IMG/VR virus record: IMGVR_UViG_3300003177_000020
Span: 16,033-80,032 of that record
From: a virus
Strand: one strand, 5' to 3'
Length of the DNA: 64,000 nucleotides
The notes under the pieces: model-generated
Told to the model about the DNA's origin: nothing
The model's input: only the letters and a program-made list of their open reading frames with translations
Databases searched by the model: none
Translations under genes and position numbers: made by a program
Part shown: piece by piece, positions 1 through 64,000 of the stretch
Position numbering within the stretch: position 1 is the first letter of the stretch
Layout: each line of letters starts with the position of its first letter

Positions 1-276
1 ATCAAAGATGGTCGCATGATGACTGCACAAGACTTGAAACATTCTTCTGATATTCATGCTGATGCTGATTGGATCTTGTTGATGCATCGTGAGGCTGTAC
101 CTGCAGGGACAATTGCCAACAGTCGCAGTGAAGATGCGTCACAAGAGATACTCTCTCCAAAGACTTTATTGCGTGTGGAAGCTGCACGTTTCGCTGGCGG
201 TGGGGAAACATATCTTCACTATGCAGGTGCTGTTTCTTCTTTTTTCGATATGGACAACATCCCTTCTTGGTTGTGA
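1..276 (+). CDS. DnaB-like replicative helicase, C-terminal fragment (5' end outside window)
   Basis: DLKHSSDIHADADWILLMHR matches DnaB motif H3 (LRxSGxIEQDADxVxxLxR); LLRVEAARFAGGG..L.Y resembles H4; frame is open from base 1. Confidence 0.7.
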   Translation: MKDGRMMTAQDLKHSSDIHADADWILLMHREAVPAGTIANSRSEDASQEILSPKTLLRVEAARFAGGGETYLHYAGAVSSFFDMDNIPSWL

Positions 277-330
277 TCACATCCTGAGATCACTTATTTC
301 TAAAATAAAACAATACATAAAACATACACT

Positions 331-382
331 TACTAACTTTTTATAAATAAATCTTGTAAAAGTGTCAGAGGACTACTATCGT
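331..382 (+). promoter_or_regulatory. Phage promoter, shared family (TAACTTTTT-AT-rich box, TTGTAA-17-TATCGT)
   Basis: TACTAACTTTTTATAAATAAATCTTGTAA is identical to the copy near 29030-29058 (- strand) and close to the 24731 copy. Confidence 0.7.
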
Positions 383-421
383 CTTTTTAGTGGCAAATTC
401 TTACAGTAAAGGGAATTTACA

Positions 422-1609
422 ATGTCTGAAAAAATTACACGAAAACGAAGGCGACGTGCGCCTTCAAAGCCTCAAGTTTCTCCTATTCAGAAACTCCGCA
501 ATGCCCTTCGTGGCATGTTGATCAATCGTGATCAAGAAATCGATGGACTTCTGACAGCATTATTGGCGCAAGAGCATGTGTTGTTGCTAGGAATGCACGG
601 TACTGCAAAGTCAGCACTTACCGAAACAATGTGTCGATCTGTGGATGGGATGGCATACTTTTCATGGCTGATGTCAAAATTCACAGTGCCAGAAGAATTG
701 TTTGGAGCATTTAGCCTCAAGGCATTACAAGATGATCGTTTCGAACGGGTAACACACGGCAAAATGCCTGAAGCTGAGATTGTCTTTTTGGATGAAATTT
801 TCAAGGCGAACTCCAGCATACTCAACAATCTGCTGACGATTATCAATGAGCGAAAGTTTGCGAATGGCACACACACGATCAAAGTACCATTACAGACTGT
901 TGTTGGCGCATCAAATGAATTGCCTGAAGGTGCTGAACTGGCAGCGTTGTATGATCGATTCATGTTGCGATTTTGGGTAAAGCCATTATCGACCAGATCA
1001 CACCGCAGAAAACTGCTTATGCTGGATTCAAAAAAAGTTGCTGCCATTTTCAATTCAGGGAAAATTACAAAAGATGAATTGGAATTGGAACAAACAGCAG
1101 CAGCGCAAGTTGATATCTCAAACAGCATTGGGATTATTTTGGACGTTCAAGAAGCCTTGCAGCGTGAGGGGTATGTTGCAAGTGATCGTCGGTGGCGTAA
1201 GAGTCTGAGCATTTTGAAAGCCTATGCGCATTTACAAGGATCAAATAAAGTGCGAAACGAACACTTGATCATACTTGCAGATGTGATGTGGGAAAAACCA
1301 GAAGATCGGGATGTGATTATTGAGTTGATTCGTAGGGTTGCAATTCCAGAACGTGCAAAAGTGGATGGAATTTTAAATGCAGCCAAAGAACAAATTGCAG
1401 AACTCCCCATTGGAAGTCGGGATATACCAGAAGAAAAGCGCAGCGCATATTTTGGACAGGCTACACGGATCAACGCAGATCTTACAAAACAAATCGCAGA
1501 GCTTGCAAAACTCGAAGAAGATTATGCGCATGAAGCGATTCAAGAATTGGAAGATATGAAAATCACTGTTCGGGATTTTGCATCATTTGTTTCTGGATTT
1601 GCAATCTGA
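422..1609 (+). CDS. MoxR/RavA-family AAA+ ATPase
   Basis: HVLLLGMHGTAKS Walker A, FTVPEELFG, VFLDEIFKANSSILNNLLTIINE, GASNELPE..LAALYDRF, SDRRW. Confidence 0.92.
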   Translation: MSEKITRKRRRRAPSKPQVSPIQKLRNALRGMLINRDQEIDGLLTALLAQEHVLLLGMHGTAKSALTETMCRSVDGMAYFSWLMSKFTVPEELFGAFSLKALQDDRFERVTHGKMPEAEIVFLDEIFKANSSILNNLLTIINERKFANGTHTIKVPLQTVVGASNELPEGAELAALYDRFMLRFWVKPLSTRSHRRKLLMLDSKKVAAIFNSGKITKDELELEQTAAAQVDISNSIGIILDVQEALQREGYVASDRRWRKSLSILKAYAHLQGSNKVRNEHLIILADVMWEKPEDRDVIIELIRRVAIPERAKVDGILNAAKEQIAELPIGSRDIPEEKRSAYFGQATRINADLTKQIAELAKLEEDYAHEAIQELEDMKITVRDFASFVSGFAI

Positions 1610-1717
1610 AATTTACACACTTTGAATAAAGTTTCTAACTAATGCCTTGATGTGTAACACTTTTCTAGTAGTGTGCAGTTAGAAACTTTATTTATACTTT
1701 TTTACAAGGAGTCGATC

Positions 1718-2798: not shown

Positions 2799-4200
2799 AT
2801 GGAAAACCTAACTTTGAATGTGTCGCAATGGCAGCATTATCTTTACACGCAATCCCGCTTTGATTTTGATGCTTTGAGAGCATTGGAAGACGCAGGGAAA
2901 AAGATTTATTCACAGTATGATTTATGGCAGCGTGAATTGTTCGCACGACTGTATGAACCGCAAACACCAAAATTAACAGAGATCCCAGATGAAGCATCGT
3001 GGGCATTGCAGATTCACGATTTGATAGGCGAACTTCCAGAGTTTCAGATGCTGCAAGAGCAAACAGCAGGAGATGCAGAATTTGCAGCCAAATCAACAGC
3101 AGTGTTGGCGCGTAGTTTTATGGCTATGGATCGCACCAAGAACAGCAAAGTACCTCGCGGGGATGTGGAAGCTGAGATTGCAGATTTGGATCACTATTTG
3201 AAAGCATTAGCCGAGATGCGAGATGCTGGAATCGATGTTGATTCTCAAATAAAAAAAGCGAATACAAAAAAAGCACATTTGCAGGATACATTGGATCGTA
3301 TTTCGCAGCCTATTGATACCGTAAAATTGCGTGGTGCAATGCGCAAGGCTGCAACACAAGCCGTCAAAGATCAAAAAGATCATAATAAAATGATGAGTGC
3401 ATTTTCTTTTGGTGGTAACGCGGGATCGCTACAGCAAAGTGGGAATATAAAATCCAAACGTATTTTTGCGAAGCACCTGAGTTCAAAGCGTAAACTACGT
3501 GAGATTGCATTGTGGGCTGGTCGTTTGAAACATGTGGCGATGAAAAAACAGCGATCAAAAAGCAAAGAAGCCAAGCATGAATTTGGCGATATTGAACAAG
3601 GTGCAGATTTGGCAAAATTGCTCCCATCTGAAATGCTGTCGTTGTGTGGTGATGAAATTTCAAGATTGTTGTTTTTCAAACGCTACACGGAGCGGCAAGT
3701 TTTGCAATACCAGTTGAAAGGAAAAGAATCTAAAGGACTCGGTGCGTTGGTGGTATGCGTCGATGAATCTTCGAGTATGAGTGGTGATCGGGATGTGCTT
3801 GCTAAGGCTACAATGCTGGCTTTGATGCATGTTGCGATCAAACAAAAGCGTACTTTTGCAGTGATTCATTTTTCTGGCGATGTTGGGCGTGTGGATGTTT
3901 TTGAACATGGTGCTATTGATCCTGATGCACTGGTAGCAACATTAGAAAATTTTGAAAAATTCTGATATTTCAAAAGCGGACATTGTGTTTCTCACAGATG
4001 GCGAAAGTTATATCCACCAGAGATCTATTGATAGTGTTCAAAAATTGCGGAATATGATCGGGTTGGAATTTTACACCATTCTTGTGGGTGGAGCGCGATC
4101 CAGCGAGGAGTTGGAAACATTATCTTCACATATTATGCATTTGCAGGATATTGTTTCTGCGGAAGAATCGGAAGCAAAGGATGTTTTGTTCTCAATCTAG
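2799..4200 (+). CDS. vWA (ViaA/CoxE-like) protein, split by a frameshift/deletion near 3950
   Basis: G.DL..LLPSE, VCVDESSSMSG MIDAS, and ADIVFLTDG in the second frame (3952-4200); the expected GGT segment between them is missing. Confidence 0.85.
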
Positions 4201-4925
4201 TTTTGATCTTTTTCTGTAATTGATCCCACCATCCAAGGCACAAAAAACGCACCATTTATTTTTGTGATTCGGATCATTGTTCTGTCAATATCCTGCCCAA
4301 ACAAGCGCAAGCAATAATTCCCTCCTTCCATCAAAATTCTGCCTGTACCAACGCAAGGATCACATAGCGTTTGCCACTTGGTATTTTTCGCACCGTTGAA
4401 CTGCGACTGGATCATCAAAGTGACGAGGGTGTGTGGTGTGGGATAAAAGGCGTGAGGATTCCAACCTGTGCCTCTCTGTGTGCAGATAAAGTCTCCAAGG
4501 TAGTCATATGGTGTTTGCAACCATAACCCAGCATCAAAAGCCTCATATAGCTTCCGTTGTGTTTGTGGTTCAAGATTGGATTGTTGTTCTTCGATTCCGA
4601 TTGCATAACTCAGCCAGTCCAGAAATGCCGTGAAGTTTCCCCACCATCTGTATTTGTTTTCTGCGCCTATGATCTCCATGCAGGTTTCAATATTTTTGAT
4701 GGCAGCTTTACATGGCTGGCTGTATCGCACTTGTGGGATTGATCCTGTTGGGAGTCCAAGCTTGATCCGCGTCCAATATCCCCACCTGTCGGGAAATGCG
4801 CAGCGTGGATTCTCGTGTAGTTGTTGGATGTAATACAGCAGCCACCCTCTATACTTCCAAGGTTGATCTCCTGTTGTGATCATTGGGATTCGTTTTTCAC
4901 GCTCTACAAATTCTGTGAATAGCAT
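4197..4925 (-). CDS. N-6 DNA methylase-like protein (SAM-binding half only)
   Basis: FYPTP, DPCVGTGRIL, LFGQDID; no NPPF catalytic motif before the stop. Confidence 0.75.
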   Translation of the reverse strand: MLFTEFVEREKRIPMITTGDQPWKYRGWLLYYIQQLHENPRCAFPDRWGYWTRIKLGLPTGSIPQVRYSQPCKAAIKNIETCMEIIGAENKYRWWGNFTAFLDWLSYAIGIEEQQSNLEPQTQRKLYEAFDAGLWLQTPYDYLGDFICTQRGTGWNPHAFYPTPHTLVTLMIQSQFNGAKNTKWQTLCDPCVGTGRILMEGGNYCLRLFGQDIDRTMIRITKINGAFFVPWMVGSITEKDQN

Positions 4926-5021
4926 TCTTTTTCCCTTTCTTTGCCATTGAAAAAAGCGTTCATTTCTCGTGGAGTATAGCACAATTATTTTATTATTTTT
5001 AGAAATATTAGAAATTTTGTG

Positions 5022-6743: not shown

Positions 6744-8468
6744 ATGAAACCGTCAAAGCCTGTATTCCTTGAGACAAGACCTCGTATTCCTGAACAGCAT
6801 GATTGCTCTAAATGCCGACTGCACCGCAAAGTTGATGTGCCTTGCATGGATACATTATGGCGTGGTAATGGTGCTATTTTGGCAGTCGGTGTGAATCCAG
6901 ATCCTACAGATGATAAAGAGGGACTTCCGTTTTCTGGTGTGAAAGGAAAAAAGCTCGCATACTGCGCGGATCTGGCAGGTGTAGATGTTGAACAAATATC
7001 CCTTACAAATGTGGTGCGTTGTGCTATTGCAGGAAAAACCAAACCTAAAAAAGATCAATTGGTGGCTTGCGGTGGATACTTGCAATTTGAGATTTTTACA
7101 AAAAAACCAAAAGTGATCCTCGCTATGGGTGATCACGCTGCACAGCTTCTTTGTCCAGACTGGAATTACACGGTGGATGTGTTGGGTAAGGATAAGCGTC
7201 AAAAAAAGAAACTCAAAGAATGGCGCGGATACCCTCAACGCTACACATACGAGGCTGCTGTAGATGGGAAGTATTACACACACACATGCTGGGTGATCCC
7301 GACATTCCATCCAAAATATTGTCTATCTAGTTGGGAACAAGATCCAATTTTAGCTTTCGATTTGAAAACAGCATTTGATTATGTCAGTGGTGTTGAAAGC
7401 ATTGTGAATCCAAATACAAAGATCACCGTGTATCGGGATCTTGCAAGCATTGAATCTTTGTTTTTGTATCTGAAACAGAAGAAAACATATGTGCTGGATT
7501 TGGAAACAACAGGGTTGGATTTTAACAAAGACGAGATCATCAACATTTGTTTTTGCGCAGAAGAAGGCGATGCACATGTGATCCCATTGCTAAGTACATG
7601 CACTCCTGATATTCGGTATTCAAATTTTAATGAATGCGAGATCGAAGAACTGCGTAGCAAATTAGTGGATCTATTTCTGCAAACGGAACTCATAGGTGCA
7701 AACATCAAATTTGACATCAAGTTTATGCGCACGTTTTTAGGTGGGTTCAACTCGTGGCGTATCTTTGCAGACACACAAATCATGCACCACATCGTACAGG
7801 AAAATCATCCTCACAATTTGAATTTTCTTACACAGTTTTATTTACGCTGGGAAAAATACGATGCTGAAATTGATCATTTCAAAAAGCTGGATGAATTGAA
7901 TTTATCCTATGCTCCCGAAGATTTGGTTTCCCGCTATGGTGGCACAGATGTCGATGGTACTTTGCGGGTGTATAATATTCTCAAAAAGATCATAGAAGAT
8001 AAAAAACTCACTAAGGTCTTTCGTATTGAAATGGGGCTGTTGCTTCCTCTCGCAGATTTGGAGTGGGTGGGTGTTCATGCTTCAAGATCAACACTTTCAG
8101 ATTTGGCTATTCGGTACAAAAAAGAAAAAGAAAAAAGTATCAAATACCTGAAGCGAAAGCATCGCGAGATATTTGGAGTTGATGCATCTGAAACATTCAA
8201 CCCTAACAGCAACGAAACAAAGAGTGGGCAGTATATGCTGGACAAGTTGGTGTTGAAAGATCTGGTTGTGAAAGGTGGCGTTCCTGCAACCATCGCAAAG
8301 CATGTGCAGCTGATCCGAAAATACACCAAATACATCTCAACCTATTTAGAGGGTAAGGATGGTGATGGTGGCATCCTAAAACGAATATCATCTGTAGATC
8401 GCATACATCCAGACTACAATATCACGGGTGCGCGGACTGGACGCCTTACAGAAAAGGTGATGGCCTGA
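6744..8468 (+). CDS. polA: Family A DNA polymerase, N-terminal part: family-4 uracil-DNA glycosylase-like domain + 3'-5' exonuclease
   Basis: CSKCRL, LPFSG..GKKL, TNVVRC, PTFHP (UDG); DLETTGL, NIKFD, YGGTDVD (ExoI-III); RIHPDYNITGARTGRL. Confidence 0.92.
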   Translation: MKPSKPVFLETRPRIPEQHDCSKCRLHRKVDVPCMDTLWRGNGAILAVGVNPDPTDDKEGLPFSGVKGKKLAYCADLAGVDVEQISLTNVVRCAIAGKTKPKKDQLVACGGYLQFEIFTKKPKVILAMGDHAAQLLCPDWNYTVDVLGKDKRQKKKLKEWRGYPQRYTYEAAVDGKYYTHTCWVIPTFHPKYCLSSWEQDPILAFDLKTAFDYVSGVESIVNPNTKITVYRDLASIESLFLYLKQKKTYVLDLETTGLDFNKDEIINICFCAEEGDAHVIPLLSTCTPDIRYSNFNECEIEELRSKLVDLFLQTELIGANIKFDIKFMRTFLGGFNSWRIFADTQIMHHIVQENHPHNLNFLTQFYLRWEKYDAEIDHFKKLDELNLSYAPEDLVSRYGGTDVDGTLRVYNILKKIIEDKKLTKVFRIEMGLLLPLADLEWVGVHASRSTLSDLAIRYKKEKEKSIKYLKRKHREIFGVDASETFNPNSNETKSGQYMLDKLVLKDLVVKGGVPATIAKHVQLIRKYTKYISTYLEGKDGDGGILKRISSVDRIHPDYNITGARTGRLTEKVMA

Positions 8469-9318
8469 CAATCCTGAAACAGATGTGTTTTTGAGTGTGG
8501 ATTATTCCAAAATGGAATTACGGGTTATGGCTTGGCTTGCGAATGAAAAATTGATGCTTGACGAGTTGCAATCGGATATTGATTTGCATACCAAGATGGC
8601 GGTCACTGCGAGGCTTATGCGTAATCCTACGGACGAGGAATATTATGCGATCTCTCCTGACGTAACATCAAATGAACGTGCGATTGCAAAAGGTGCAAAT
8701 TTTGGCATTCCATACGGTCGCGGTGCAGGTTCCATTGTTGCTGAGAATCCTAATTCATTCCCTGCGAAAATGAAGCACTGGGATCGCATCAAACAGGTTG
8801 ATCGGATCATTGATGCCTACTATGAAAAATATCCAAACATTTATTCATACATGGAAAAGCAAAAAAGGATTGCACATAAACGCATGTGGTTGCGCTCATC
8901 ACAGACAGGCAGAATAAGAAACCTGTATGGTATGCGTTGGTTCAAATCGGAATTTGCAGAAGACTTGGATAAATTTGAGAAAAGATTGATGCAAGGAGAT
9001 ATTGAACACATTGAACGGGAAGCCCAAAATTATCAGATACAAGAAATCGCTTCATCTATTTTGGCAACACAAACACGCATTGTTTACGATGCAATCCAAA
9101 CACGACAACTAGGCATTCGGAATTTCAGGATCGTGCTAAGTATTCACGATCAACTTTTATTCAACTGCCACCGTGAGGACATTCAAAAAGCAGAAGTATT
9201 CGCACGGCAGCATATGGAAATTGTTCTGCCGAAAACAAAAAAGCAGAAGTACGAAATACCGATAACAGTTGATTCCGTGGTGCAGCGGGTATGGGGAGAG
9301 AACGAATACAATGACTGA
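8461..9318 (+). CDS. polA: Family A DNA polymerase, C-terminal catalytic part (same gene, frame broken at ~8450)
   Basis: DYSKMELR (motif A), R..AKGANFGIPYG (motif B), NYQIQ, IHDQL (motif C). Confidence 0.92.
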   Translation, partial: WPDNPETDVFLSVDYSKMELRVMAWLANEKLMLDELQSDIDLHTKMAVTARLMRNPTDEEYYAISPDVTSNERAIAKGANFGIPYGRGAGSIVAENPNSFPAKMKHWDRIKQVDRIIDAYYEKYPNIYSYMEKQKRIAHKRMWLRSSQTGRIRNLYGMRWFKSEFAEDLDKFEKRLMQGDIEHIEREAQNYQIQEIASSILATQTRIVYDAIQTRQLGIRNFRIVLSIHDQLLFNCHREDIQKAEVFARQHMEIVLPKTKKQKYEIPITVDSVVQRVWGENEYND

Positions 9319-9931
9319 TTACAATGAGCATCAAATGCTTGAAAGTCTAAAAATCGGATCGGATCTTGATTTGGAATTTAGGACAACACCCGCATACCTA
9401 GCACGATGGGGGTTTCAAAAAGCATCTTACCACGCAGAAGTAAGACGGGCAGAGGAAGATTTGGATCTTGTTTGGGCTAGGTTGTACAGCGAATACAAGC
9501 AGGATAATCCAAACTCAAAAGAAAACGAAGTGAAAGCACATGTGATGCTCCATCCAGATCACAAATTAGCTCGCGGTGTATTGCGAAAAGCTGTGTATGA
9601 TTTGGATATGTTACGCGCAGCAATTAAGGCTGCGGAAGCCAAAGTGTCGATGCTGCAACAACTAGGTGCAGCAAGCCGTGTGGAAAAAGGTGCATATCAA
9701 AATGCCTACGGTGCAGGTTCTTCAAGATCAAAAGATGATCGTGGCGGACGCAAGCTATCGCAAAGTAGGGATGCACATATGGTTGAAACTATTACGGAAA
9801 AGGCACAAACAGTTAGTGCAAAAATACGCAGAAGAAGGAGGGTTGATCCAGAAAAATTGAAGAAAGCAGAAGAAGAAAGACAACGCAAAATAAGACAAGC
9901 AAGCAAAAGAATTGAAAACAAATCAAAGTGA
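9311..9931 (+). CDS. UvsY-like recombination mediator (putative)
   Basis: Helical pattern LKI..DL..EF...PA....W and K..ML.QLG...R.E; lies between polymerase and SSB. Confidence 0.55.
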   Translation: MTDYNEHQMLESLKIGSDLDLEFRTTPAYLARWGFQKASYHAEVRRAEEDLDLVWARLYSEYKQDNPNSKENEVKAHVMLHPDHKLARGVLRKAVYDLDMLRAAIKAAEAKVSMLQQLGAASRVEKGAYQNAYGAGSSRSKDDRGGRKLSQSRDAHMVETITEKAQTVSAKIRRRRRVDPEKLKKAEEERQRKIRQASKRIENKSK

Positions 9932-9941
9932 GGATTCCGTT

Positions 9942-10850
9942 ATGGCTACACGCAGAAAATTTGATCGCAAGCACATCAAAAAGAAACAAGAAGAAATCCG
10001 CAACCGCAACGAATCGATTTATTTGGAACTTCAGAAAAACACATGGGAGCATGTTTTTGTACTTCCACCTTGGAGTGATGAGGGGCAAATTTGGAAGGAA
10101 GTCGAAAAACATGGAATGCACGTTTGCCCGAAAAAACTGGGTGTTCGCGAGTGTGTGATCTGCAAAGAAATGAAAAAGCAAAGCAAAAAAGGGAATGTGG
10201 ATTTTGTGAAAGAGATGCGTTTGCGTCCTGTTGCATTTCTCAATGTGATCCGAACAAAAGATGTGGAGTCCGAAAATCCAGAAGAGCGCATCAAAATCCT
10301 ACGCTTATCTGCACGTCTGTTCGAACAGTTGGTGGATTATTTGGAAGATGAAGATGTGGATATTACAGAGTTGGAAGCTGCGATTCCTGTGGCGATCAAA
10401 AAGAAGCAAACAGGTGGCTGGCGCACGATTCGATATCAAGATTTGCGATTCGGAAAAACAGAAGACATCAGCGAATACATCACAGATGAAGTGCTGGATG
10501 AAGGGCTACATGATCTGGATACCATCCGAGGTGCTTTGCCTTCTTCCGATAAAGAGATGCGCAAAACAATCAAAGAATTACTTGGTGGCGGTTCAGGTTA
10601 TGACGACGACGACGATGATGATCTGGATGATGACTTTGATGATGATGACGACAGTGGCTTCCCATCCACAAAAGATGTGCAGCGCGGATCGAAAAAATCA
10701 GATGATCTGGACGACGATGACGATGATGATCTGGATGATGAAACACAAACACTATTTGAAACAAAAAGGAACCAACATGCTTATTGTCGTGGATATCTCA
10801 GGAATTTTATTTGCATCTGCTTTCGCATCACGCAGAACAAAAAACGGTAG
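9942..10850 (+). CDS. gp32-like single-stranded DNA-binding protein (natural stop probably lost near 10745)
   Basis: VLPPW, H..C..C..C zinc motif, long poly-Asp tail; reads on out of frame into the next gene. Confidence 0.7.
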   Translation: MATRRKFDRKHIKKKQEEIRNRNESIYLELQKNTWEHVFVLPPWSDEGQIWKEVEKHGMHVCPKKLGVRECVICKEMKKQSKKGNVDFVKEMRLRPVAFLNVIRTKDVESENPEERIKILRLSARLFEQLVDYLEDEDVDITELEAAIPVAIKKKQTGGWRTIRYQDLRFGKTEDISEYITDEVLDEGLHDLDTIRGALPSSDKEMRKTIKELLGGGSGYDDDDDDDLDDDFDDDDDSGFPSTKDVQRGSKKSDDLDDDDDDDLDDETQTLFETKRNQHAYCRGYLRNFICICFRITQNKKR

Positions 10851-11613
10851 TGTGATCGATGGTACGCTTCAGGCTGTTGGTTCTTTGTTTCAAAATTATC
10901 AACCTGATGAAATGGTTATTTGTTGGGATGCAGGACATTCAGGTCGGCACTTTATCCTTCCAGAATATAAAGGATCGCGCAGAACGGATACTGAGATCCG
11001 TGATCTGATAGTTGAAAAGGAAGATTTGATTTTTGAATGCTTGGATTGCTTACCCGTGAAAAACTTACGTGTGCGTGGATTTGAAGCTGATGATTTGATA
11101 GGTGAAGTTGTATCCTACGAGCGCGATGATTTTGCGATCATCATTTCAAACGACCGAGATCTGTACCAACTGGCAAACCACAACACCAAGCAGCACACGT
11201 TGTACAGCGATCCAGTTACAATGGGTATCAAACCAAAACAAGTCGTGATGTACAAATCAATTGTTGGTGATGTTTCGGATAACGTCAAAGGCATCACAGG
11301 TATTGGTGAGAAAAAAGTCAAAGGTGTGATCGCGCAACACAAAAGCATTACGAGATTGATCAAACACCTAAAAGAATCAAACGAACGTTTCGGTAGAATG
11401 GACGCGCAAGAAGCAATTGATCGATTACAGCGCAATCAAGACTTGATGACTTTGGATGGTCGACTGCTTCCGCAACACATCAAAGAGGAAATACGGAAAC
11501 AATACACAGCACCGATACAATCTGATTTTCAAGAACTGCATCGGTTGTTTACAGAGAATAATTTGAAAAAGTTACTGCGCAGATTTGATCGTTTCGTGTC
11601 GCAGTTTGAATAA
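10777..11613 (+). CDS. 5'-3' exonuclease / flap endonuclease (T4 RNase H / T5 D15-like)
   Basis: MLIVVD, CWD, YKGSR, EADDLIG, SNDRDLYQL, GDVSDNVKGITGIGEK; AAGGA RBS. Confidence 0.92.
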   Translation: MLIVVDISGILFASAFASRRTKNGSVIDGTLQAVGSLFQNYQPDEMVICWDAGHSGRHFILPEYKGSRRTDTEIRDLIVEKEDLIFECLDCLPVKNLRVRGFEADDLIGEVVSYERDDFAIIISNDRDLYQLANHNTKQHTLYSDPVTMGIKPKQVVMYKSIVGDVSDNVKGITGIGEKKVKGVIAQHKSITRLIKHLKESNERFGRMDAQEAIDRLQRNQDLMTLDGRLLPQHIKEEIRKQYTAPIQSDFQELHRLFTENNLKKLLRRFDRFVSQFE

Positions 11614-11628
11614 GAAAGGCAGGAAAGA

Positions 11629-12558
11629 ATGGCAGCAAAAAAAGAAACTACCAGAAAGAGAAGAACCAAAAAGGAAGAAGCTCCCAAGAGTAACAGACTC
11701 GCAAAGTTGGCAGATCGTTTGAGTGAATCGTTAGGGAGTGAAAGCTTCCATCTTGGTGGTAGTGGTTTGTGTTCTCCACGAATATATATTCCTTCTTTGA
11801 TCCCAGATTTGGATCAAGTGCTTGATCGTGAAGGTCGCGGATGGGCTGGTGGCAGAATTGTTGAATTGTACGGTGCGTCCGCAACATCCAAAACAGGTAT
11901 TGGATATGCACTAGGTGCAAGCTGCCAACAACAAGGTGGTGACTTCATTTTGATACCTGCAGAGGGTAACGTGGATGAGTGGTTGTTACGTCAATATGGT
12001 GTTGATCTTGATACGCTCTTGATTGTGGATAAAAACACTGTTGAGGAAATATTCTTTTTTGTGAAGAAAGTTCTGGAAGATACAGAAACTCCAACAGTGA
12101 TCATGATCGATTCTTTGGCAGGGATGTGTACCAAAGAAGAATTTGAAAGCGATACGTTCGAACGGGATCGTGCAGCACAACTCCGAGCATTTTTGACTTC
12201 AAAAGCACTTCGCAAAATATCCACAATCGTACCAAAAACAAACACGATTCTTTTTATGATCAATCAAGTTCGTGAGGGTGCAACAGTGGGAGTGCTGAAA
12301 CAAAAAGACAAACCTACAGGTGGGCACGCCATTGGATTCTATTGTGATATCCGCATTCGCCTAGAAAATATCGGAAGGATCAACAGAACAAAAGCAGGGA
12401 AGAAATACGTGGCTGGTTTCAAACTCCGTGCAACTGCTGAAAAGAATCGTCTTGCGGAACCATTCGCAACCAGTGAGTTCATGCTGGACTTTGATAAAGG
12501 TATGTCTTCGATGCCTGAAAAGAAAACCAAGAAAAAAAGTGCAGGTGGTGAAACATGA
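11629..12558 (+). CDS. recA: RecA/UvsX-like recombinase
   Basis: GRIVELYGASATSKT, IDSLA, SKALRK, FMINQVRE, TGGHAIGFYCDIRI, KNRL. Confidence 0.92.
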   Translation: MAAKKETTRKRRTKKEEAPKSNRLAKLADRLSESLGSESFHLGGSGLCSPRIYIPSLIPDLDQVLDREGRGWAGGRIVELYGASATSKTGIGYALGASCQQQGGDFILIPAEGNVDEWLLRQYGVDLDTLLIVDKNTVEEIFFFVKKVLEDTETPTVIMIDSLAGMCTKEEFESDTFERDRAAQLRAFLTSKALRKISTIVPKTNTILFMINQVREGATVGVLKQKDKPTGGHAIGFYCDIRIRLENIGRINRTKAGKKYVAGFKLRATAEKNRLAEPFATSEFMLDFDKGMSSMPEKKTKKKSAGGET

Positions 12559-13694
12559 AAATCGCATTTATTGGCGACACACATCTTGGGAGATCTGTTC
12601 ACGGGTATGATATGACACCGCATATCCAACAGCAGATGGACGCCTTCTTTGATTTTTGCGTGAAGCATGAAGTTGATATGGCGATCCATTTGGGGGATTT
12701 ATTTGATACTCCTAAACCAAAAGACACCCATCAAAGGATCGCAATTCAGTGGGCAAAAAAGTTTGATGCTGAAGAAATACAATTGTACTTGCTTGTTGGG
12801 AATCACGATTGCATTGCTCGCAAAGATTATCCCACAGCACTTGAATTGTTGAAAGCAATTGATTTTGAAAATGTGCGCGTTGTTGATCAAGCACGGATGG
12901 ATCTCATTGGGCATTCAAATAAAGATTTGTATTTGCTTTCGTTGCCATTCCCATCGGCAGGTTTGATTGAAAACCACAAACAATGGCGGGATAGTATTTT
13001 TAAGTTACTACATAAAAAGCCACATGATGCACCGTTTATTTGTGTTTCGCATTTGAATGTAGGTGGCGCATCACTTGGAAATCAAAACTGGGTGTACAGG
13101 GGAAAAGATTTTGCTGTCCCTGATTTTGGTATTGAAGAAAAAAACCTGCAAATAATTGTGAATGGACATATCCATAAGCACCAATTGTTACCTTCAACAT
13201 TATGTCTTGGCGCAGCACTACCATTGACTTTCGGTGAGATAGAAAATCCAGCAGGGTTTTTGATATATGATACGGTCGAAGAAGACTCACAATATTACAC
13301 TGCTGATCCTGATGTTGCTCTTTACGATTTGAAGCTGGACGTCACCACTGCAACAAATGGTGAGCCTATTGGCACACAGAACATTTTGTTTTTGATCGAT
13401 ATGCTAGATCTCAATGGTAAGCTGGTGAAGCTGCAGCCAGTTATTGATTTGGAATCTACAGTAGACTGGGATCGTGTTGTTGCGTACCTACAAGAAAAAG
13501 GTGCGACACATGTTATTGCTGAAATACCAAAATTTGATTCACCGCAACTGGCAGAAAAAATATCCTACATTGGGAACCAGCATGAGCTTGTGGATGAGTA
13601 TCTTTCGTCTTTCGATCTTGGTGATAAAAAAGGTGTGATCACGCAAGCATTCCAAAAGGTACTCGGCATTCATTCCAAAACAAAAAACAATTAA
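12555..13694 (+). CDS. sbcD: SbcD/Mre11-like metallophosphoesterase nuclease
   Basis: GDTHLG, GDLFD, GNHD, GHIHKHQ. Confidence 0.9.
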   Translation: MKIAFIGDTHLGRSVHGYDMTPHIQQQMDAFFDFCVKHEVDMAIHLGDLFDTPKPKDTHQRIAIQWAKKFDAEEIQLYLLVGNHDCIARKDYPTALELLKAIDFENVRVVDQARMDLIGHSNKDLYLLSLPFPSAGLIENHKQWRDSIFKLLHKKPHDAPFICVSHLNVGGASLGNQNWVYRGKDFAVPDFGIEEKNLQIIVNGHIHKHQLLPSTLCLGAALPLTFGEIENPAGFLIYDTVEEDSQYYTADPDVALYDLKLDVTTATNGEPIGTQNILFLIDMLDLNGKLVKLQPVIDLESTVDWDRVVAYLQEKGATHVIAEIPKFDSPQLAEKISYIGNQHELVDEYLSSFDLGDKKGVITQAFQKVLGIHSKTKNN

Positions 13695-13712
13695 TTCTGC
13701 GAAAGGTAAGTC

Positions 13713-13931
13713 ATGAACGTGAAAATACCACCAACAGGGACGATACCTGTGCGGATGGATAAGATTATCCGCGAAACAAAATCGTTGTATTTGCTGCGAG
13801 ATAAGCAGAAACGCATTTTATGGGTGCCAAAAAATCAAGTGCTTTTAGACTCCAGTAGGCATTTGGTTTTTCATATCAACGTCGAATTTGCAGCACAAAA
13901 CAGCATTGTATCAAACGTGGTGATCCGATGA
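13713..13931 (+). CDS. Hypothetical small protein
   Basis: AAAGG RBS; RETK..L......WVPK pattern; stop overlaps next start. Confidence 0.6.
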   Translation: MNVKIPPTGTIPVRMDKIIRETKSLYLLRDKQKRILWVPKNQVLLDSSRHLVFHINVEFAAQNSIVSNVVIR

Positions 13932-17759: not shown

Positions 17760-17767
17760 GGCACGAT

Positions 17768-50843: not shown

Positions 50844-50858
50844 ATATAGAGGTTTGTG

Positions 50859-51899
50859 ATGGCTGGTAACAACGCGGATGCTGCATTGGAAGATTTGGAA
50901 GTCCAAGAAGTTTCTTTTGTAGATGCTCCCGCAAATCGAAGAAAATGGTTAATTACGAAAAAGGAGGGCATTATGCCTCAAGGTGGGATTCTAGATATGC
51001 TTGGTTTTAAAGATAATGCACCAAGCAATGCTGTCGTGAAGCTGGAAGGATCGGACATGAAAATCAAGATCAACAAAGCATTGCAGCCTCAAGTTGAACA
51101 GATTCTTTCCGCAGCATTGGAAAAAATGACGAGTGTTGCTTCCAATGTTCCTGTTGATAAGGCAGAAGTTCCAGACGAGTGGTTGCAGCAGTTGTTTGAA
51201 GCACAGGCACAACTCGCAGCATTGCTTGAAGCCCTTTCAGGTGATGAGCCTCCATCTGAAGAATCCACAGATCCAAGTGAAGATTCAGAGATGGATAAAA
51301 TGGTGAAAGCTATTTCTGCTGGATTGTTGGAATTGGTCAACAAAGTCAAATCGGTGGACAAGGCTGCAACAAGTATTCCTTCAGAGATTCTCAAAGATCT
51401 TAATGCATTGGTTCAGAAGTTTGCTGCTGTGAAAAAAATGGCTGAGAAACCTGCGGGTGGATCTGGTTCTAGTGCTGATGGCATGGATGAAGAAGATCAA
51501 CAAAAAGACAAGCGAGATCATGTTGCAAAACTTGAAGTTTTCAAAGGCAATGGATCTGATGTTGTGTTGAAGCGTGGCGATAACTTGGTTACAACAAATG
51601 TTTCTGAGTTGGAAATCTTGCACAAAAATATTGTTGGTGTTCTCCAGCAAGTTGGTGGCTCCGTTTCAATCACAAAATCTTCTGACAGTGTTGATCGTAA
51701 TAGTTTGATTGAAGGTTTCGGGAAAATGGAAGAAATTGTCAAATCGACTGTTGGTGAATTGAAAACGGCAATTGCTGGTGTTCAAGAAAAAATTGAAAAA
51801 CTGGATGGTATTCATGGTGGTGGTAACGCTGCTTCTTCTGAAGAAACTCCATCCAGTGAAATCAAGAAGAATAACTCGATTTGGAATGGGATCTTCTAA
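50859..51899 (+). CDS. Capsid scaffolding protein (XkdF-associated)
   Basis: L.DL.V.EVSFVD.PAN.R...ITK, helical body, immediately before the MCP, ends WNGIF. Confidence 0.8.
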   Translation: MAGNNADAALEDLEVQEVSFVDAPANRRKWLITKKEGIMPQGGILDMLGFKDNAPSNAVVKLEGSDMKIKINKALQPQVEQILSAALEKMTSVASNVPVDKAEVPDEWLQQLFEAQAQLAALLEALSGDEPPSEESTDPSEDSEMDKMVKAISAGLLELVNKVKSVDKAATSIPSEILKDLNALVQKFAAVKKMAEKPAGGSGSSADGMDEEDQQKDKRDHVAKLEVFKGNGSDVVLKRGDNLVTTNVSELEILHKNIVGVLQQVGGSVSITKSSDSVDRNSLIEGFGKMEEIVKSTVGELKTAIAGVQEKIEKLDGIHGGGNAASSEETPSSEIKKNNSIWNGIF

Positions 51900-51961
51900 A
51901 TTTTACAAGAAACAATCAATCCACGTATAATGCATTTCAGTTTATATTGAAGGAGTAAAAA

Positions 51962-53158
51962 ATGCCAACAAATCAAGAACTCATCAACAAGGCTGCGATT
52001 ACAACCGATGCCATTGCAACCGCAGGAAAGTTGAATCCACAGCAGTCAGATAAATTCATCGATTATGTTTTTGATGAAACATCTCTCAAAGGCATTGGTG
52101 TTCGTACTGTCAAATTTCGCGAAAGTCAGCGTGAAATAAACAAAATCAATGTTGCAAATCGTGTCGCAGTTGCAGCCGATGAAGCAGCCGATCCCAAAGT
52201 TCGACGCGGTATTGCTACCAGTACAATTACACTCGAACCAAAAGAAATTATGGTTCCTTTCGAGATTGGTGATTTGCTTAAAGATCAAAACATCGAACAG
52301 GACAAAATCGAAGATACCATTGTGCGGTTGATGGCAACTCGCATGGGCAACAACATTGAAGAATTGTTTTTGGCGGGTGATGCCACAGGTCATGCCGTGC
52401 TTGAAAATGAACTTGTTGAAGGTGGTTCTTCAAATTTGTATCGCAAGGATCGTTATCTTGCCCTTTTCGATGGATTGCTGAAACTTGCGGAAGCTGGACA
52501 TGTTGTGGATGCTCAAAATCAGCAGATCAAACCAACTTTGATCTCTCGTGCATTGCGTTCGATGCCAAACAAATTCCGAAAAGATCGTAAGGCACTCAAA
52601 GCACTGCTTTCATGGGATCATGAGCAACACTACCGCGAAGGCGTATCCAGTCGTGCTACAAATGCTGGTGATGCTGCCTTGTCAGGTGAAGGTGCAATTT
52701 CTTCTTTTGGTGTTGATCTTTTGCCCATCAGTTTGCTTGAAAGTGATCCACGTTACACAGAGCATGTGATTCTTACAGGTACAACTCCTGTGCAACTTCC
52801 ACACACAAACATTTCTGAAGTGGTTGTCACGGTTTCCACATTGGACAAGACACCTGAAGCGGCTTTTATCGCAGGTACAGATTACAATGTTGATCTTGCT
52901 GCAGGAACAATTGTCCGTTTGGCTGGAGGTGCAATTTCCAGTGGGCAGACTGTGAAAGTCACATACAGAACTGCAGGTCGCATGATTATTACGATGCCAA
53001 AAAACATCATTATTGCGATGGGCAAAGACATCACAATTGAAAAAGATCGCAACATTTACAAGCGTGTGAATGAATATGCAGTGACTGCAAAAGTGTTTGT
53101 GACCTACGAAGAACTGGATGCCGTTGTATTGCTCAAGAACTTAGCTCTTCCTGTGTAA
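51962..53158 (+). CDS. Major capsid protein (HK97 fold) with Ig-like insertion
   Basis: G.LNP.Q...FI, NIE, .E.L...GD, DG.LK.A, A...MP.K, P.N.I, EE.DAVV; AAGGAG RBS. Confidence 0.92.
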   Translation: MPTNQELINKAAITTDAIATAGKLNPQQSDKFIDYVFDETSLKGIGVRTVKFRESQREINKINVANRVAVAADEAADPKVRRGIATSTITLEPKEIMVPFEIGDLLKDQNIEQDKIEDTIVRLMATRMGNNIEELFLAGDATGHAVLENELVEGGSSNLYRKDRYLALFDGLLKLAEAGHVVDAQNQQIKPTLISRALRSMPNKFRKDRKALKALLSWDHEQHYREGVSSRATNAGDAALSGEGAISSFGVDLLPISLLESDPRYTEHVILTGTTPVQLPHTNISEVVVTVSTLDKTPEAAFIAGTDYNVDLAAGTIVRLAGGAISSGQTVKVTYRTAGRMIITMPKNIIIAMGKDITIEKDRNIYKRVNEYAVTAKVFVTYEELDAVVLLKNLALPV

Positions 53159-53202
53159 TTTGCAGATTCTTTTTCTTTTTCATAGGATTTGGAGGTTTTA
53201 AT

Positions 53203-53496
53203 ATGGCAGCGCATGTGACATATTGGGGTGGTGCTTCTTATCGGATCGGATCGACACTGTTCCGCAAAGGTCGAACCGTGACTGTTCATGATGATGATAT
53301 TATTGAGCAATTGGATAACGATCATCGTTTTACAGTTGAACGGTTTGTAGCGAAAATCATCCGTAAGCCTGTTGGTGAGAAAACGGATGTTATTGATGTT
53401 ACCGAAGATCCAGAACCCAGTGGTACATCAAATGTGGAAGATACAGATCCCGAAACCAATTCTGAAGATACTCCCGAATCTGAACCTGCTGAATGA
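53203..53496 (+). CDS. Hypothetical head-region protein
   Basis: GGAGG RBS; acidic tail. Confidence 0.7.
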   Translation: MAAHVTYWGGASYRIGSTLFRKGRTVTVHDDDIIEQLDNDHRFTVERFVAKIIRKPVGEKTDVIDVTEDPEPSGTSNVEDTDPETNSEDTPESEPAE

Positions 53497-53593
53497 TTCC
53501 AATTCCATCCTCAATGTGACCCTATCGTATAATTCCACATTTCAATTTTGATCAAAATTATGAATTGAAGTACACTCTTGTCGGAGGTGTAAT

Positions 53594-53884
53594 TTGATTC
53601 TACAGCCGACGATAAGTTACCGCTTTTTACAAAGATCCTTGTTGATACCACAGGAACAACCTGATGGATCTAGGGTTCTTTTTACTTTTGCAGGTAAATT
53701 TCTGAATCGTTTGGATGCACAAGCATTTGTTTTTTATAACGGGCAGTTGTTAGAGGAAGGAACTCTTGCAGACTACACGTTATCCGAAAGTGCAGGTGTT
53801 GGGTCTGGGTTTGATGAATTGAGAACAAATTTTACACCAAAAATTGATGATAAACTGCGCGTCTTTGCGTTTTTGAAAATATAG
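53594..53884 (+). CDS. Virion structural beta-domain protein
   Basis: DG....FT....F......V..NGQ.L..G...DY..SES. Confidence 0.7.
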   Translation: MILQPTISYRFLQRSLLIPQEQPDGSRVLFTFAGKFLNRLDAQAFVFYNGQLLEEGTLADYTLSESAGVGSGFDELRTNFTPKIDDKLRVFAFLKI

Positions 53885-53893
53885 GGGTTTGGT

Positions 53894-54469
53894 ATGGCAC
53901 GCACGCTGCTTCGTCAAGATATTCAACTGCGATCTTCTGATTTGTATTCGGATGTAATTGCTGCGGGCATTACACTGGAAACAGGTGCTGCAAATTTAGA
54001 GGATGATCTCAACTCTGTGAGATCCCAAATCAATCGTGTTCTGGATTCGACAGGATCGGGTAAATGGTATGACGATGTTGCTACGATCAATACCAAAAAG
54101 CGTGGGTTGAAACAACTCAATACTGATCTTGATGGTCTTGAAGAAAAGAAACTTTTGTGTGCAGCTGCGTTGCTTACGGATGTTGTTGTACAGGCTGCAA
54201 ATAATTATGTGATACTCAATCAAGCAGCGGGTGAGACTCCATCACAAGTGATCGCTATTTTAGCTACAACTGATGGTGCTGTGGTTGCTCAGACTGCAAC
54301 CAGTGGTGGTGCTTTCGCTGTGCATGAATTGGATGCTGTTGTTGGTGCCGACGCATTGCATCCTAAAAACTTGGTTTCCGTTGTGGATGCTTCGACTGGG
54401 CAGATAATACATTCAAGGCAAATGGCATCGCACAGCTGCAAGTTACACTGGTTGAGATTGATCCTGTAA
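53894..54469 (+). CDS. Virion structural protein, probably truncated at ~54400
   Basis: MART..RQ..Q..S..Y.D, LE.DLN..RSQ; tail after TGQ looks out of frame. Confidence 0.65.
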   Translation: MARTLLRQDIQLRSSDLYSDVIAAGITLETGAANLEDDLNSVRSQINRVLDSTGSGKWYDDVATINTKKRGLKQLNTDLDGLEEKKLLCAAALLTDVVVQAANNYVILNQAAGETPSQVIAILATTDGAVVAQTATSGGAFAVHELDAVVGADALHPKNLVSVVDASTGQIIHSRQMASHSCKLHWLRLIL

Positions 54470-55128
54470 ATGCTGCTGGTATGTACAAATTGAATGTTGG
54501 CGGTCATGTCTCAGGGTTCAATACTTCTTTGATTTCAAATCACGTTGATGGTGACACTTACGTTTTTATGGCTGTACAGGATGGGTTGCCTTCAAATGCA
54601 GCCAATATGCCTCAATTTGGATCTGTGACAGTTGGCGGTTTTATTGATTTTGTGGATCAAGCAATCAGTCAAAATGCCGATCCATCAGAAATAACAAATG
54701 TCCTCCAATCGATGCGTTTGGATCAACTTATTTCTTCAAGTGCTGGAAACAATGCTCCTGCTGCTGGTTCTTTTATGCAGCAGATTCTTGATGGTTTGAA
54801 CCCCAATGCTTCGTTTGTTGTGCTGCAGAGTTTTTCTTACAGTACCACACAGGATTTGTTTGAGGGTTTGGTTTGGGTCGAAAAGGCAGGGCTTGTGTTT
54901 TCCACTCTTGCAGAAATGGGATCTTGTGTTGTGAATTTGTATGATTCGGATGGTAATTTGGTGCATACGGTTTCTGATCCTACTCCAGACACAAAAGGGT
55001 TTTATAAGGTGCAGATATCAACACCAAATTTATCAAAAGAGACATTGTATTACGCGGTGTCACAAGTGAGCATTTCTTCTGTTGCAGGAGGCTTCGTTTC
55101 TGGTGGTAAGGGTATGTTTACAATATGA
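54391..55128 (+). CDS. Virion structural protein, probably lacking its 5' end
   Basis: Frame open upstream of ATG 54481, reading FDWADNTFKANG..L.E.D...AG.Y. Confidence 0.6.
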   Translation, partial: FDWADNTFKANGIAQLQVTLVEIDPVNAAGMYKLNVGGHVSGFNTSLISNHVDGDTYVFMAVQDGLPSNAANMPQFGSVTVGGFIDFVDQAISQNADPSEITNVLQSMRLDQLISSSAGNNAPAAGSFMQQILDGLNPNASFVVLQSFSYSTTQDLFEGLVWVEKAGLVFSTLAEMGSCVVNLYDSDGNLVHTVSDPTPDTKGFYKVQISTPNLSKETLYYAVSQVSISSVAGGFVSGGKGMFTI

Positions 55129-61670: not shown

Positions 61671-62117
61671 ATGGGCATCAAAGGCGTATTTCTTCCAGAT
61701 CACGGGCAGCTGAATAAGTATCGTCTGGATATTTTGGGGTTGCCACCATTGACTCCAATTTCCATTACTGGCTTGGAACGTGAGCTTGAAACCACAGAAC
61801 TTCCAGATAAAACAGTGGCAACAGGTGGACGGCAAATGCCTGTTGAATTTGAAATGAAACTTCCTGCACACCATGATCTCGAAATTGCAGCAATGGATTC
61901 GTGGCAGGATGAGTGTGATGAACCTGTTTCACCTACACATAAGAAAATTGCTACTTTGAGTATTTTAGCTCAGAGTGGTCGTGTGGTAAGATCTTACATG
62001 ATCGAAGGTTGCTTTCCTTCAAAGTTGGGGCTTCCTGATTTGGAGTTGAGCAATGAAGGTGAAATGGCAGAACACACATACACTATGAAAGGTGATGGGA
62101 TGCACCGCATTTCTTAA
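61671..62117 (+). CDS. Tail tube protein
   Basis: 148 aa after the sheath; I.GLE.E.E, W, Y...G.FPSK. Confidence 0.85.
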   Translation: MGIKGVFLPDHGQLNKYRLDILGLPPLTPISITGLERELETTELPDKTVATGGRQMPVEFEMKLPAHHDLEIAAMDSWQDECDEPVSPTHKKIATLSILAQSGRVVRSYMIEGCFPSKLGLPDLELSNEGEMAEHTYTMKGDGMHRIS

Positions 62118-62188
62118 TATCCTCCCTCTCCTCCTTGCCTTCATTCCTTCCTTTGCACAATTTATTTATTTTTTGAAAGGGTATTTAC

Positions 62189-63016
62189 ATGAAAAAAACA
62201 ACCGTTGGTGAACTTGGTTGCAATCTTCCTATTGGTTTGATGCGTGATGGGCAGTTACTCAAACGCTTTGAATTGCAACCATTCAAGACCAAAACAGAGC
62301 GTATGTTGGGCGCGTGGCAAAAATCAAATGCGCACTTAGATGAAGGGCAGATTTTGACATCGAAAGTGAGCAAGTTGCTGTCCATGCTTGTGATCAACGT
62401 CGATGCGGAAGGTATGCCAAAAGATCCATTACAGGCAGAAAGATCTATGTATTCTTGGTGGGCTGATGATGTGATGTACGCTTACGTCGTGGCGCGTATT
62501 CAGGCTCTTGGAAATGAGTTTGTGTGGTCTTTTTCATGTAATAAACATGGATGTAAATATTCAACAGATTCAGCAGTTTTTGATTTGAATACACTTGAAG
62601 TTTCTTGTTTGGAAACACCAGATGAGTTACGGCAAAGTATCAATTTGAAGCATCCGTTTATGCTTTCTTCTGGTGAGAAATTGCATCGTGTTACAGTTTC
62701 ACCCTTGCGATGGTCTTCGTTTACTCGTGGCGGTGCAATGCTTGATGCTGCCGTTGGTGCTGGTGATTTTTGGACATTCAGAGATAGCATTTGCGGGATC
62801 AATGGACGCGAAGGAAGTGTTGTTCTTACAGATGACGATATCGATGAATTTTCATTCGAAGATTACAGGCGCATTGAAAAGATCACACAAGATAATTCCG
62901 CAGGGATCTCGCTGCAAACTCATGCCGATTGTCCTGATTGTGGAACCACGAATTATAATATTTTGAACTGGGGATATGATGATTTTTTCGGATCATCTTC
63001 CCTTTTGGTGAAATAG
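62189..63016 (+). CDS. Tail assembly chaperone (Zn-ribbon, duplicated domain)
   Basis: LPIG, D..Y.....RI..LG, C....C, CPDCG, W.YDDFF. Confidence 0.75.
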   Translation: MKKTTVGELGCNLPIGLMRDGQLLKRFELQPFKTKTERMLGAWQKSNAHLDEGQILTSKVSKLLSMLVINVDAEGMPKDPLQAERSMYSWWADDVMYAYVVARIQALGNEFVWSFSCNKHGCKYSTDSAVFDLNTLEVSCLETPDELRQSINLKHPFMLSSGEKLHRVTVSPLRWSSFTRGGAMLDAAVGAGDFWTFRDSICGINGREGSVVLTDDDIDEFSFEDYRRIEKITQDNSAGISLQTHADCPDCGTTNYNILNWGYDDFFGSSSLLVK

Positions 63017-63177
63017 ACGATTTGCTTGAAGAAGCGTATTATCTATCCAAGGTGGGAAGATTTTCTTTTGTTGATGTGTTGGAAATGACCAGTTACGAAC
63101 GGCATAAGATGCTTGATCTTTGTATTGAAAGTGTGAAGCAAGAAAACGACGCATACAAAAAAGCAGGATTGCTTTAG
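62983..63177 (+). CDS. Tail assembly chaperone C-terminal extension (-1 programmed frameshift)
   Basis: Slippery T TTT TTC at 62983-89; -1 frame opens there and reads ...DDLLEEAYYL....F..V.EM...ER...L. Confidence 0.8.
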   Translation, partial: FFRIIFPFGEIDDLLEEAYYLSKVGRFSFVDVLEMTSYERHKMLDLCIESVKQENDAYKKAGLL

Positions 63178-63186
63178 GAGCAGGTT

Positions 63187-64000
63187 GTGGCTCGGATTGG
63201 ATTGAAAGCTACATTATCTTTTGTTGCAGGTGCAGCAGTTTCAAATATCAAAAGAACTGCGACTGCCTTTTCAAAATTGCAACAACAAGCAGAACAAGTG
63301 AAACGCGCCACACAACAAGTAAATCGTGGCATGAGTGATCTTGGGCGTGTTGGTCTTGGTGTGGTTGCTGGTACAGGACTGGCAGTTCGATCTTTTGCTG
63401 CATTTGAGGGTGCTTTTGCAGGTGTGCGATCTATTTTAGCAACAGGTGCTAAAAAAGAGTTTCCACAGTTGAAACAAAAAGCTGAGGAATTAGGAGCCAC
63501 AACAAGTTTTACGGCAACACAAGCAGCATCCGCAATGGAAAGTTTGGCGCGTGCAGGATTGAATGCAAATCAGATTATGAAAGCGATCCCGTCAGTGTTA
63601 AGTGCTGCTGCTGCTGAGGGTATCAGCTTGTCTACAGCTGCGGATATTGCATCCAAAAATATGAAAGCCTTTGGTCTAACGACAAAGGATATTCCACAGA
63701 TTGTTGATACGCTGGCATTTGTATCAAAGAATACCAACTCTTCTATGGTGGGATTGCAAGAAGGTTTGAAGCTTGTAGGTTCAAGTGCTAAGGCGTTGAA
63801 GATAAGTGTTTTTTCTACAACAAAAGCTCTTGGTATTTTGAATGATGTCGGGTTGAATGGATCGCTTGCAGGTACAGCGTTGAATCAAGTGTTGGTTAAG
63901 ATGTCTAAGGCAACAAAAAATGGGGTGATCCCTATTATGTCTGGTCTTTCAGCACGCTTGGAAAAAAATGCTGATGGACTGCGTTGAAAACGATCAAAGA
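63187..64000 (+). CDS. Tape measure protein, N-terminal part (TP901-like core); premature stop at 63987 probably an indel
   Basis: FE....V, A.ELGATT.FTA.QAA.AME.LARAG, L..AAA, L...G..GS.AGTAL. Confidence 0.9.

Follow-up and report, generated by a model that had tools for sequence, protein, structure and literature searches.

Over-representation of GATC in a phage genome in which some twenty other short words are nearly absent

In phage genomes, short palindromes are usually taken as the scars of restriction, and an excess of such a word is rare. In control sets, only ~1% of site-genome pairs are over-represented (Rusinov et al. 2015, PMC4687349), and in 46 of 46 phages whose hosts encode a GATC-recognizing methyl-directed enzyme (DpnI-like, Type IIM), the GATC bias was below 1 (Rusinov et al., PMC6286503/PMC4687349). 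Here, we report on one genome that shows both extremes. The DNA studied is a window of 64,000 nucleotides, bases 16033 to 80032 of the 80,032-bp IMG/VR viral contig IMGVR_UViG_3300003177_000020; the whole contig was also analyzed. The sequence is strongly enriched in GATC and is almost entirely free of CCGG, GGCC, and a series of other short words. Tentatively, and with a probability that we put at roughly 40%, we read GATC as a protected and probably methylated word that is held at high density by selection in this phage.

GATC occurs 615 times in the window (9.6/kb), compared with 234.5 sites (3.7/kb) expected from base composition, and 764 times in the whole contig. A first-pass annotation, made from the letters of the window alone, had claimed such an excess on the strength of hand counts (13 sites in 481-1500 and 10 in 51961-52980) that turned out to be exact; the over-representation holds across the window and, at an observed/expected ratio of ~2.6 (2.58), is stronger than first reported. 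A second-order Markov model of the window predicts 507 sites (ratio, 1.21; z = +6.9). The sites are spread uniformly along the genome, at a mean spacing of about one per 105 bp, and the gaps between them are Poisson-like (coefficient of variation, 0.98; largest gap, 745 bp; very short gaps somewhat rarer than chance), which rules out regular spacing or clustering. Since the bases flanking GATC in coding DNA carry at most 0.02 bit per position, the unit is bare GATC, and the enrichment is confined to this 4-bp word. Extended motifs, namely, TTTGATCAAA and the anti-Shine-Dalgarno complement GGTGATC, were considered and dropped, the flanks being uninformative and GGTGATC not special.

One explanation for these numbers would be an artifact of codon or amino acid use, or else a side effect of the avoidance of other words or of TpA, and several figures agree with it: GAT (83% of Asp codons) and ATC are favored codons, 507 of the 615 sites are already expected by the second-order Markov model, and Karlin's tau for GATC is 0.98. 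The last of these is, in our view, uninformative when a word is this common, because the divisors GAT, ATC, GANC, and GNTC are themselves inflated by GATC, which accounts for 61% of all GANC in the genome. Codon-aware controls, based on 99 crudely called genes covering ~87% of the genome and on 300 shuffles per null, leave this explanation barely credible. Synonymous-codon shuffling within genes yields 545±13.5 sites and codon permutation yields 484±17, versus the 764 observed (z ~16 in both cases), and GATC tops all 136 tetranucleotide classes in observed/expected ratio under the two shuffles (1.40 and 1.58, respectively). The annotation had proposed Markov and codon-shuffled z-scores as a check on its claim; with values of +6.9 and ~16, the excess persists after control for codon and amino acid use and is independent of both. 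Nor is it a by-product of other avoidances or of TpA: in a constrained Markov-chain synonymous shuffle, in which none of 24 avoided words could be created and in which TA, TTAA, TATA, CTAG, ACGT, TCGA, AGCT, and GTAC were capped at their observed counts, GATC still relaxed from 764 to 512-590 sites and can therefore not be a side effect of those constraints.

The excess is present in every reading frame, with 316 versus 213-228 sites for GAT|C, 238 versus 128-135 for G|ATC, and 117 versus 36-82 for xGA|TCx. Codon choice shifts with context toward making the word: for Asp, GAT makes up 92.7% of the codons that are followed by a C, versus 73-84% otherwise, and for Ile, ATC makes up 52% of the codons that are preceded by a G, versus 30-37% otherwise. 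The excess is largest in noncoding DNA (9.5 kb), where GATC is the most enriched tetranucleotide, with 84 sites versus 33 expected from composition, 26 from a dinucleotide Markov model, and 56 from a trinucleotide Markov model. CTGC ranks second among the enriched words in this fraction.

The opposite extreme is just as clear. An avoidance of CCGG and GGCC, suspected from reading alone, was confirmed by exact counts of 0 and 1, respectively, both in the window and in the whole contig. Base composition predicts 117 of each in the window, the second-order Markov model predicts 55 and 59, and the codon-aware nulls predict 81-89 and 62-103. Several degenerate words share this fate (observed versus Markov expectation): CCWGG (0 versus 91), GGWCC (0 versus 28), CGSCG (0 versus 24), and GCSGC (3 versus 41), as does GCAGGC (1 versus 27). 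Among hexamers, GAATTC (0 versus 22), GGATCC (0 versus 31), CGATCG (0 versus 29), GCATGC, CCATGG, and GGTACC (0 each) are missing, CACGTG occurs twice, and the GWGCWC group is reduced to 0 GAGCTC, 2 GTGCAC, and 1 GAGCAC/GTGCTC. TTAA is depleted about 4-fold, with 91 sites versus 313-370 expected in coding DNA and 15 versus 81 in noncoding DNA. TATA, CTAA, and ACTA are also low, and the depletion of TTAA exceeds the general suppression of TpA (Markov z, -9).

Against a maximal-order model, the most depleted hexamer is one that itself contains GATC: CTGATC/GATCAG is found 6 times versus 60 expected. All six sites (8310, 13303, 32198, 42988, 54123, and 54974; span, 8310..54979) are CTGATC on the plus strand, and GATCAG occurs 0 times on that strand. 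Survival of an asymmetric word in a single orientation is the pattern expected for a type III-like enzyme, which suggests that an asymmetric, type III-like recognition site containing GATC is avoided.

The purge extends to the proteins. Across the 23,219 predicted residues, three dipeptides never occur, Gly-Pro (GP; 0 versus 52 expected), Pro-Gly (PG; 0 versus 52), and Trp-Pro (WP; 0 versus 11), since each of their codon pairs would create CCGG, CCWGG, GGCC, or GGWCC. Three proteins of a sibling phage (85% identical) also lack GP, PG, and WP, whereas relatives at 49-56% identity contain them. A case in point is the D12-class methyltransferase domain discussed below, in which the widely conserved YDGP preceding the DPPY motif reads YDSP, GP being forbidden; the sibling has YDKP. 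Relatives of the capsid protein at 47-55% identity come from phages in which CCGG and GGCC are normally frequent and GATC is not in excess; the origin of the two traits therefore lies within a narrow lineage. The best explanation for this word usage is that it has been shaped by very diverse restriction enzymes of the host, with about twenty target words removed. Taken by itself, the restriction-avoidance half is a strong example of something already known. The possibility that other sites survive because Dam methylation shields them was rejected, as the overlap of TCGA, ATCGAT, and similar words with GATC is no more frequent than its density predicts.

A host or mutational signature would account for the GATC half with no function in the phage at all: the word would follow an oligonucleotide bias of the host or a context-dependent mutation or repair bias turning GA[ACG]C and similar words into GATC. 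The diffuse, uniform, and randomly spaced distribution of the sites and the lack of an extended motif are in keeping with this account, other, nonpalindromic words are strongly over-represented too, and the one-off neighbors GA[ACG]C are reduced to a ratio of 0.67, compared with 2.58 for GATC, as directional conversion would give. It is harder to reconcile with other phages. Our comparison set consisted of 131 phage contig pieces with relatives of the two methylases or of the capsid protein, 29 of them at 36-48% GC. Within these 29, the median observed/expected ratio of GATC is 0.87 (maximum, 2.03), versus 2.6 here, and the median Markov ratio is 0.67 (maximum, 1.18), versus 1.21 here. Phage pieces of similar GC content thus normally under-represent GATC, in agreement with the annotation's premise that phages usually deplete palindromes, and over-representation is limited to ~1% of pairs in the control sets cited above (PMC4687349). 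Furthermore, zero CCGG, zero CCWGG, and near-zero GGCC cannot mirror any host, and GATC is invariant in a family of promoter spacers described below. We therefore consider a host or mutational origin unlikely, if still a serious contender. If the enrichment does mirror the host, the word pattern would serve as a fingerprint by which to trace that host, along with its very large set of restriction enzymes. Two unrelated IMG/VR contigs of ~60% GC that carry a D12 homologue (L080 and L042) have ~17 GATC/kb and an excess of CATG, with CATC/GATG and CCWGG near-absent, and so provide another case of GATC enriched beside purged words.

The most likely reason for the excess is, in our view, that GATC on the virion DNA is N6-adenine methylated. 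According to this reading, GATC would not be counterselected and would instead have been raised by ~200-280 sites, in every frame and in noncoding DNA. The methyl group would come from a host Dam or from an enzyme of the phage, for which a beta-class methylase fused to ParB is the stronger candidate, and methylated GATC would be invisible to MboI/DpnII-type enzymes. A high number of marks may then be beneficial as signals read by the phage, at the promoter-spacer GATC and in paired GATC units, and/or dense N6-methyladenine may interfere with other DNA-targeting defenses; we infer that selection of this kind, rather than mutation bias, maintains the density. The fate of longer words built on GATC fits a methylated state. 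TGATCA is common, while GGATCC, CGATCG, and CTGATC are purged. Dam methylation blocks MboI and BclI, the latter being the enzyme of TGATCA, and does not block BamHI or PvuI, the enzymes of GGATCC and CGATCG.

Gene content also speaks for this reading, insofar as two intact amino-methyltransferases and no C5 methylase are encoded. Family searches over the whole contig returned a single gene each for PF01555 and PF02086; methylases of the C5, MT-A70, and phage-Dam (PF05869) families were not found. Of the three methyltransferase-like genes previously listed for the window, the two fusions are intact and the third is truncated. The first fusion (15724..17061, plus strand) joins a ParB_N domain to a beta-class N6_N4_Mtase domain (PF01555; E value, 7e-26). 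Its motifs DPPF, WHKSNPCP, and HPTQKP, the latter two already given as WxKxNPxP and HPTQKP in the first-pass annotation, are seen in the alignment to 5HEK and follow the beta-class order, in which motif IV, (D/S)PP(Y/F), precedes motif I, which makes the protein a candidate adenine methylase; a specificity for GATC, however, cannot be assigned from its sequence. Its nearest solved relatives are Helicobacter pylori M1.HpyAVI (deposited as "DpnA") and CcrM, and every NCBIfam equivalog score is far under its cutoff. Relatives in IMG/VR were discarded as a guide to specificity, being too distant (≤33% identity).

The second fusion (49320..50843, plus strand), located in the head module, joins a D12-class (alpha) methyltransferase domain in frame to an XkdF-type prohead protease, an architecture that recurs in at least 15 protein clusters. 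The D12 domain matches PF02086 with an E value of 3.8e-15 and has the alpha-class motif order, and its FFGGGA and FLDPPY motifs are invariant in 15 homologues. As judged by its family scores and motifs, this protein is not a canonical Dam. The remaining methyltransferase-like open reading frame (4197..4982, minus strand), probably the third gene of the earlier list, has gamma-class motifs X and I (FYPTP and DPCVGTG), ends before NPPY, and may represent a truncated methylase or an S-adenosylmethionine-binding remnant. It is the lone minus-strand reading frame inside a plus-strand block. In summary, the phage would by its gene content be able to methylate DNA, and neither of the intact enzymes can be assigned to GATC.

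A number of observations weigh against methylated GATC as the cause of the excess. To begin with, methylation is not visible in sequence letters. The nearest characterized relatives of the ParB fusion are not GATC enzymes. The D12 domain scores 46.5 bits against the Dam family TIGR00571, for which the cutoff is 114.85, and it lacks the GATC-reading hairpin (NGLxRxN...FNVPxG) common to EcoDam and DpnM; the aligned region reads CSFMSRGLTFSPQHSGGKNIP in the D12 domain, YNGLCRYNLRGEFNVPFG in EcoDam, and FNGLYRVNSKNQFNVPYG in DpnM. Profile comparison places it closest to M.CbeI (7M6B; E value, 7e-22), an alpha-class N4-cytosine methylase according to the depositors of the structure, followed by DpnM (1e-12) and EcoDam (1e-8). 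Three prophage relatives with the D12-protease fusion (L006, L008, and L009) have GATC observed/expected ratios of 0.11-0.55, and a link between this fusion and GATC excess was discarded because the 44 IMG/VR loci that bear a homologue showed none. Phage P1 has a Dam gene and regulates via GATC, yet it has no excess, and the use of marks alone therefore does not predict enrichment. Three properties of the word statistics point the same way: the tau value of 0.98, the random spacing of GATC with neither genome-wide clustering nor phasing, and the fact that CAAA, TCAA, CTGC, and CGCA (with their complements TTTG, TTGA, GCAG, and TGCG) are also 1.2- to 1.45-fold over-represented under the same codon nulls, so that part of the GATC signal may be generic context bias.

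Some GATC sites occupy positions at which they might be read. The predicted promoter pattern TTGTAA-N8-GATC-N5-TAnnnT has four matches, versus 0.15 expected by chance. Three of these end in TACTAT (24755..24783 and 25521..25549 on the plus strand and 30682..30710 on the minus strand), and the fourth ends in TAAGCT (29007..29035, minus strand). Within this family of early promoters, with its TACTAT-like -10 element, GATC is invariant at one position of the spacer, while the other spacer bases vary. In addition, an 18-nucleotide unit, TGATCnnGnnnGGnGATC, containing two GATC sites 13 bp apart, is present in four plus-strand copies (at 22596, 23815, 23837, and 24620; span, 22596..24637) that sit upstream of repeated promoter cassettes. 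In these early cassettes (22596-25552), the 18-nucleotide units are followed by an A/T-rich block (GCTAACTTTTTTTATTTATT) and, after it, by a TTGTAA...TACTAT promoter; the cassettes recur every ~770 to 1240 bp ahead of small genes. The GATC sites in promoters and units are too few to explain the genome-wide excess, but their arrangement would be consistent with a methyl-sensitive early switch. The proposal that GATC marks are used by the phage is thus partly supported: the fixed GATC in four promoter spacers fits it, and no writer of such marks can be assigned.

The same sites could be read with no methylation involved, by a DNA-binding or nicking protein of phage or host origin that serves in replication, recombination, or packaging. 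The early region, with its paired GATC units and the GATC of its promoter spacers, would suit a protein of this kind, and the phage's own set of RecA-like, Mre11/Rad50-like, RuvC, FEN, and SSB proteins is encoded next to the ParB fusion. However, scans of the larger open reading frames with Pfam and PHROG produced no candidate GATC-specific nuclease or binder, and a 4-bp site placed at random every 105 bp is unlikely to be a specific signal, so that we regard this explanation as quite improbable.

A bolder version of the methylation reading, which we hold to be distinctly unlikely, is that the high density of GATC is actively selected as an epigenetic self-mark that is read by the early promoters and serves as a shield. 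The mark would be written on each packaged genome by the methylase borne on the head protease, within the procapsid, or by the ParB-tethered enzyme. If true, a restriction-type palindrome would here be under positive selection in a genome from which such words are otherwise eliminated.

The contig itself has a CheckV completeness of 84% and is recorded as linear. Its last ~60 bases (window positions 63940-64000) repeat the first ~100, apart from a 37-nucleotide indel that falls inside the tape-measure gene, and this gene continues past the contig end. The contig therefore probably represents a near-complete genome that is circularly closed or permuted, and the indel is probably a population variant at the join of the closed genome. 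Family searches identify a tailed phage, with P2 GpU- and baseplate-V-type tail genes, a large terminase gene (TerL), a portal gene, and a capsid gene. Replication and recombination genes (UDG-exo-PolA, FEN, SSB, RecA-like, Mre11/Rad50-like, and RuvC) are present, and ThyX and a MoxR/VWA module are also encoded. Searches with megablast and tblastn against phage records found no near relative among isolated phages. In protein searches, there is one sibling, with 85-87% amino acid identity, on a 73,880-bp contig, and the next relatives are at 49-56%. Leads to the host are few: no tRNA genes were found in the contig that could give a clue, TerL and ThyX had no match in a host search over genome contigs, and a protein-atlas comparison of the endolysin pointed to no host. 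The best named ThyX homologues, 46-47% identical, are from Melioribacteraceae/Ignavibacteriota, a weak lead.

The only GGCC of the genome (8462..8465) lies within GTG ATG GCC TGA C, where one DNA polymerase A reading frame (6729-8468) gives way to another (8485-9318), which starts 17 nucleotides on and in the +1 frame; the annotation had placed it correctly at this junction. The site falls on a frame-0 Ala codon that could be recoded so as to lose it. The PolA motifs go on in the +1 frame, and a frameshift across the TGA would yield an unbroken ...TGRLTEKVMA-DNPETDVFLSVDYSKMELR...; a Shine-Dalgarno-like stretch (AAGGTGAT) is found just upstream of the junction. Three origins of the split are compatible with the sequence: a lesion that arose recently, an error in sequencing, or a programmed +1 shift.

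How does this phage compare with described systems? With E. coli Dam, T4 Dam, and DpnM (2G1P and 2DPM), the D12 domain has in common the PF02086 family, a motif I of the FGGGA type, DPPY, and the alpha-class order. It differs from them in falling under the TIGR00571 cutoff, in having no hairpin, and in being nearer to M.CbeI. With M.CbeI of Caldicellulosiruptor bescii, it shares DPPY and a variable region of the same overall length; unlike in that enzyme, which has no protease fusion, the methylase domain here is part of a larger protein, and the match, of low similarity, is limited to this domain. M.CbeI protects GGCC. The same specificity would be pointless in the present case because the phage has a single GGCC.

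Phage P1 (Dmt and DarB/DarA) offers two parallels. Its GATC sites are annotated inside promoter regions (cre and kilA), as they lie in promoter spacers here, and it combines an N6-methylase-like DarB with processed internal head proteins, just as a methylase domain is carried here on a head protease. Unlike the present phage, P1 shows no GATC excess (observed/expected ratio, 1.05, and Markov ratio, 0.82, for the first 50 kb). Moreover, there is no sequence relationship between the two systems, and the fusion partner of the methylase in the present phage is an XkdF protease, not a helicase. Should the enrichment prove to be linked to adenine methylation, it would be a sequence-level sign that a phage profits from methyl marks rather than merely tolerating them, and it would point to two unusual methylases, one fused to a head protease and one to ParB.

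The broadest comparison is with restriction-site avoidance in phages (Rusinov et al. 2018, PMC6286503; Rusinov et al. 2015, PMC4687349). As in that work, Type II-like palindromes are far below expectation, and the depletion is lineage specific rather than common to the capsid relatives. What differs is, first, the breadth of the loss, with about twenty words near zero and three dipeptides gone, and, second, that GATC, a classic restriction word, is enriched. We therefore see the GATC enrichment as an unusual variant standing beside the known avoidance of restriction sites.

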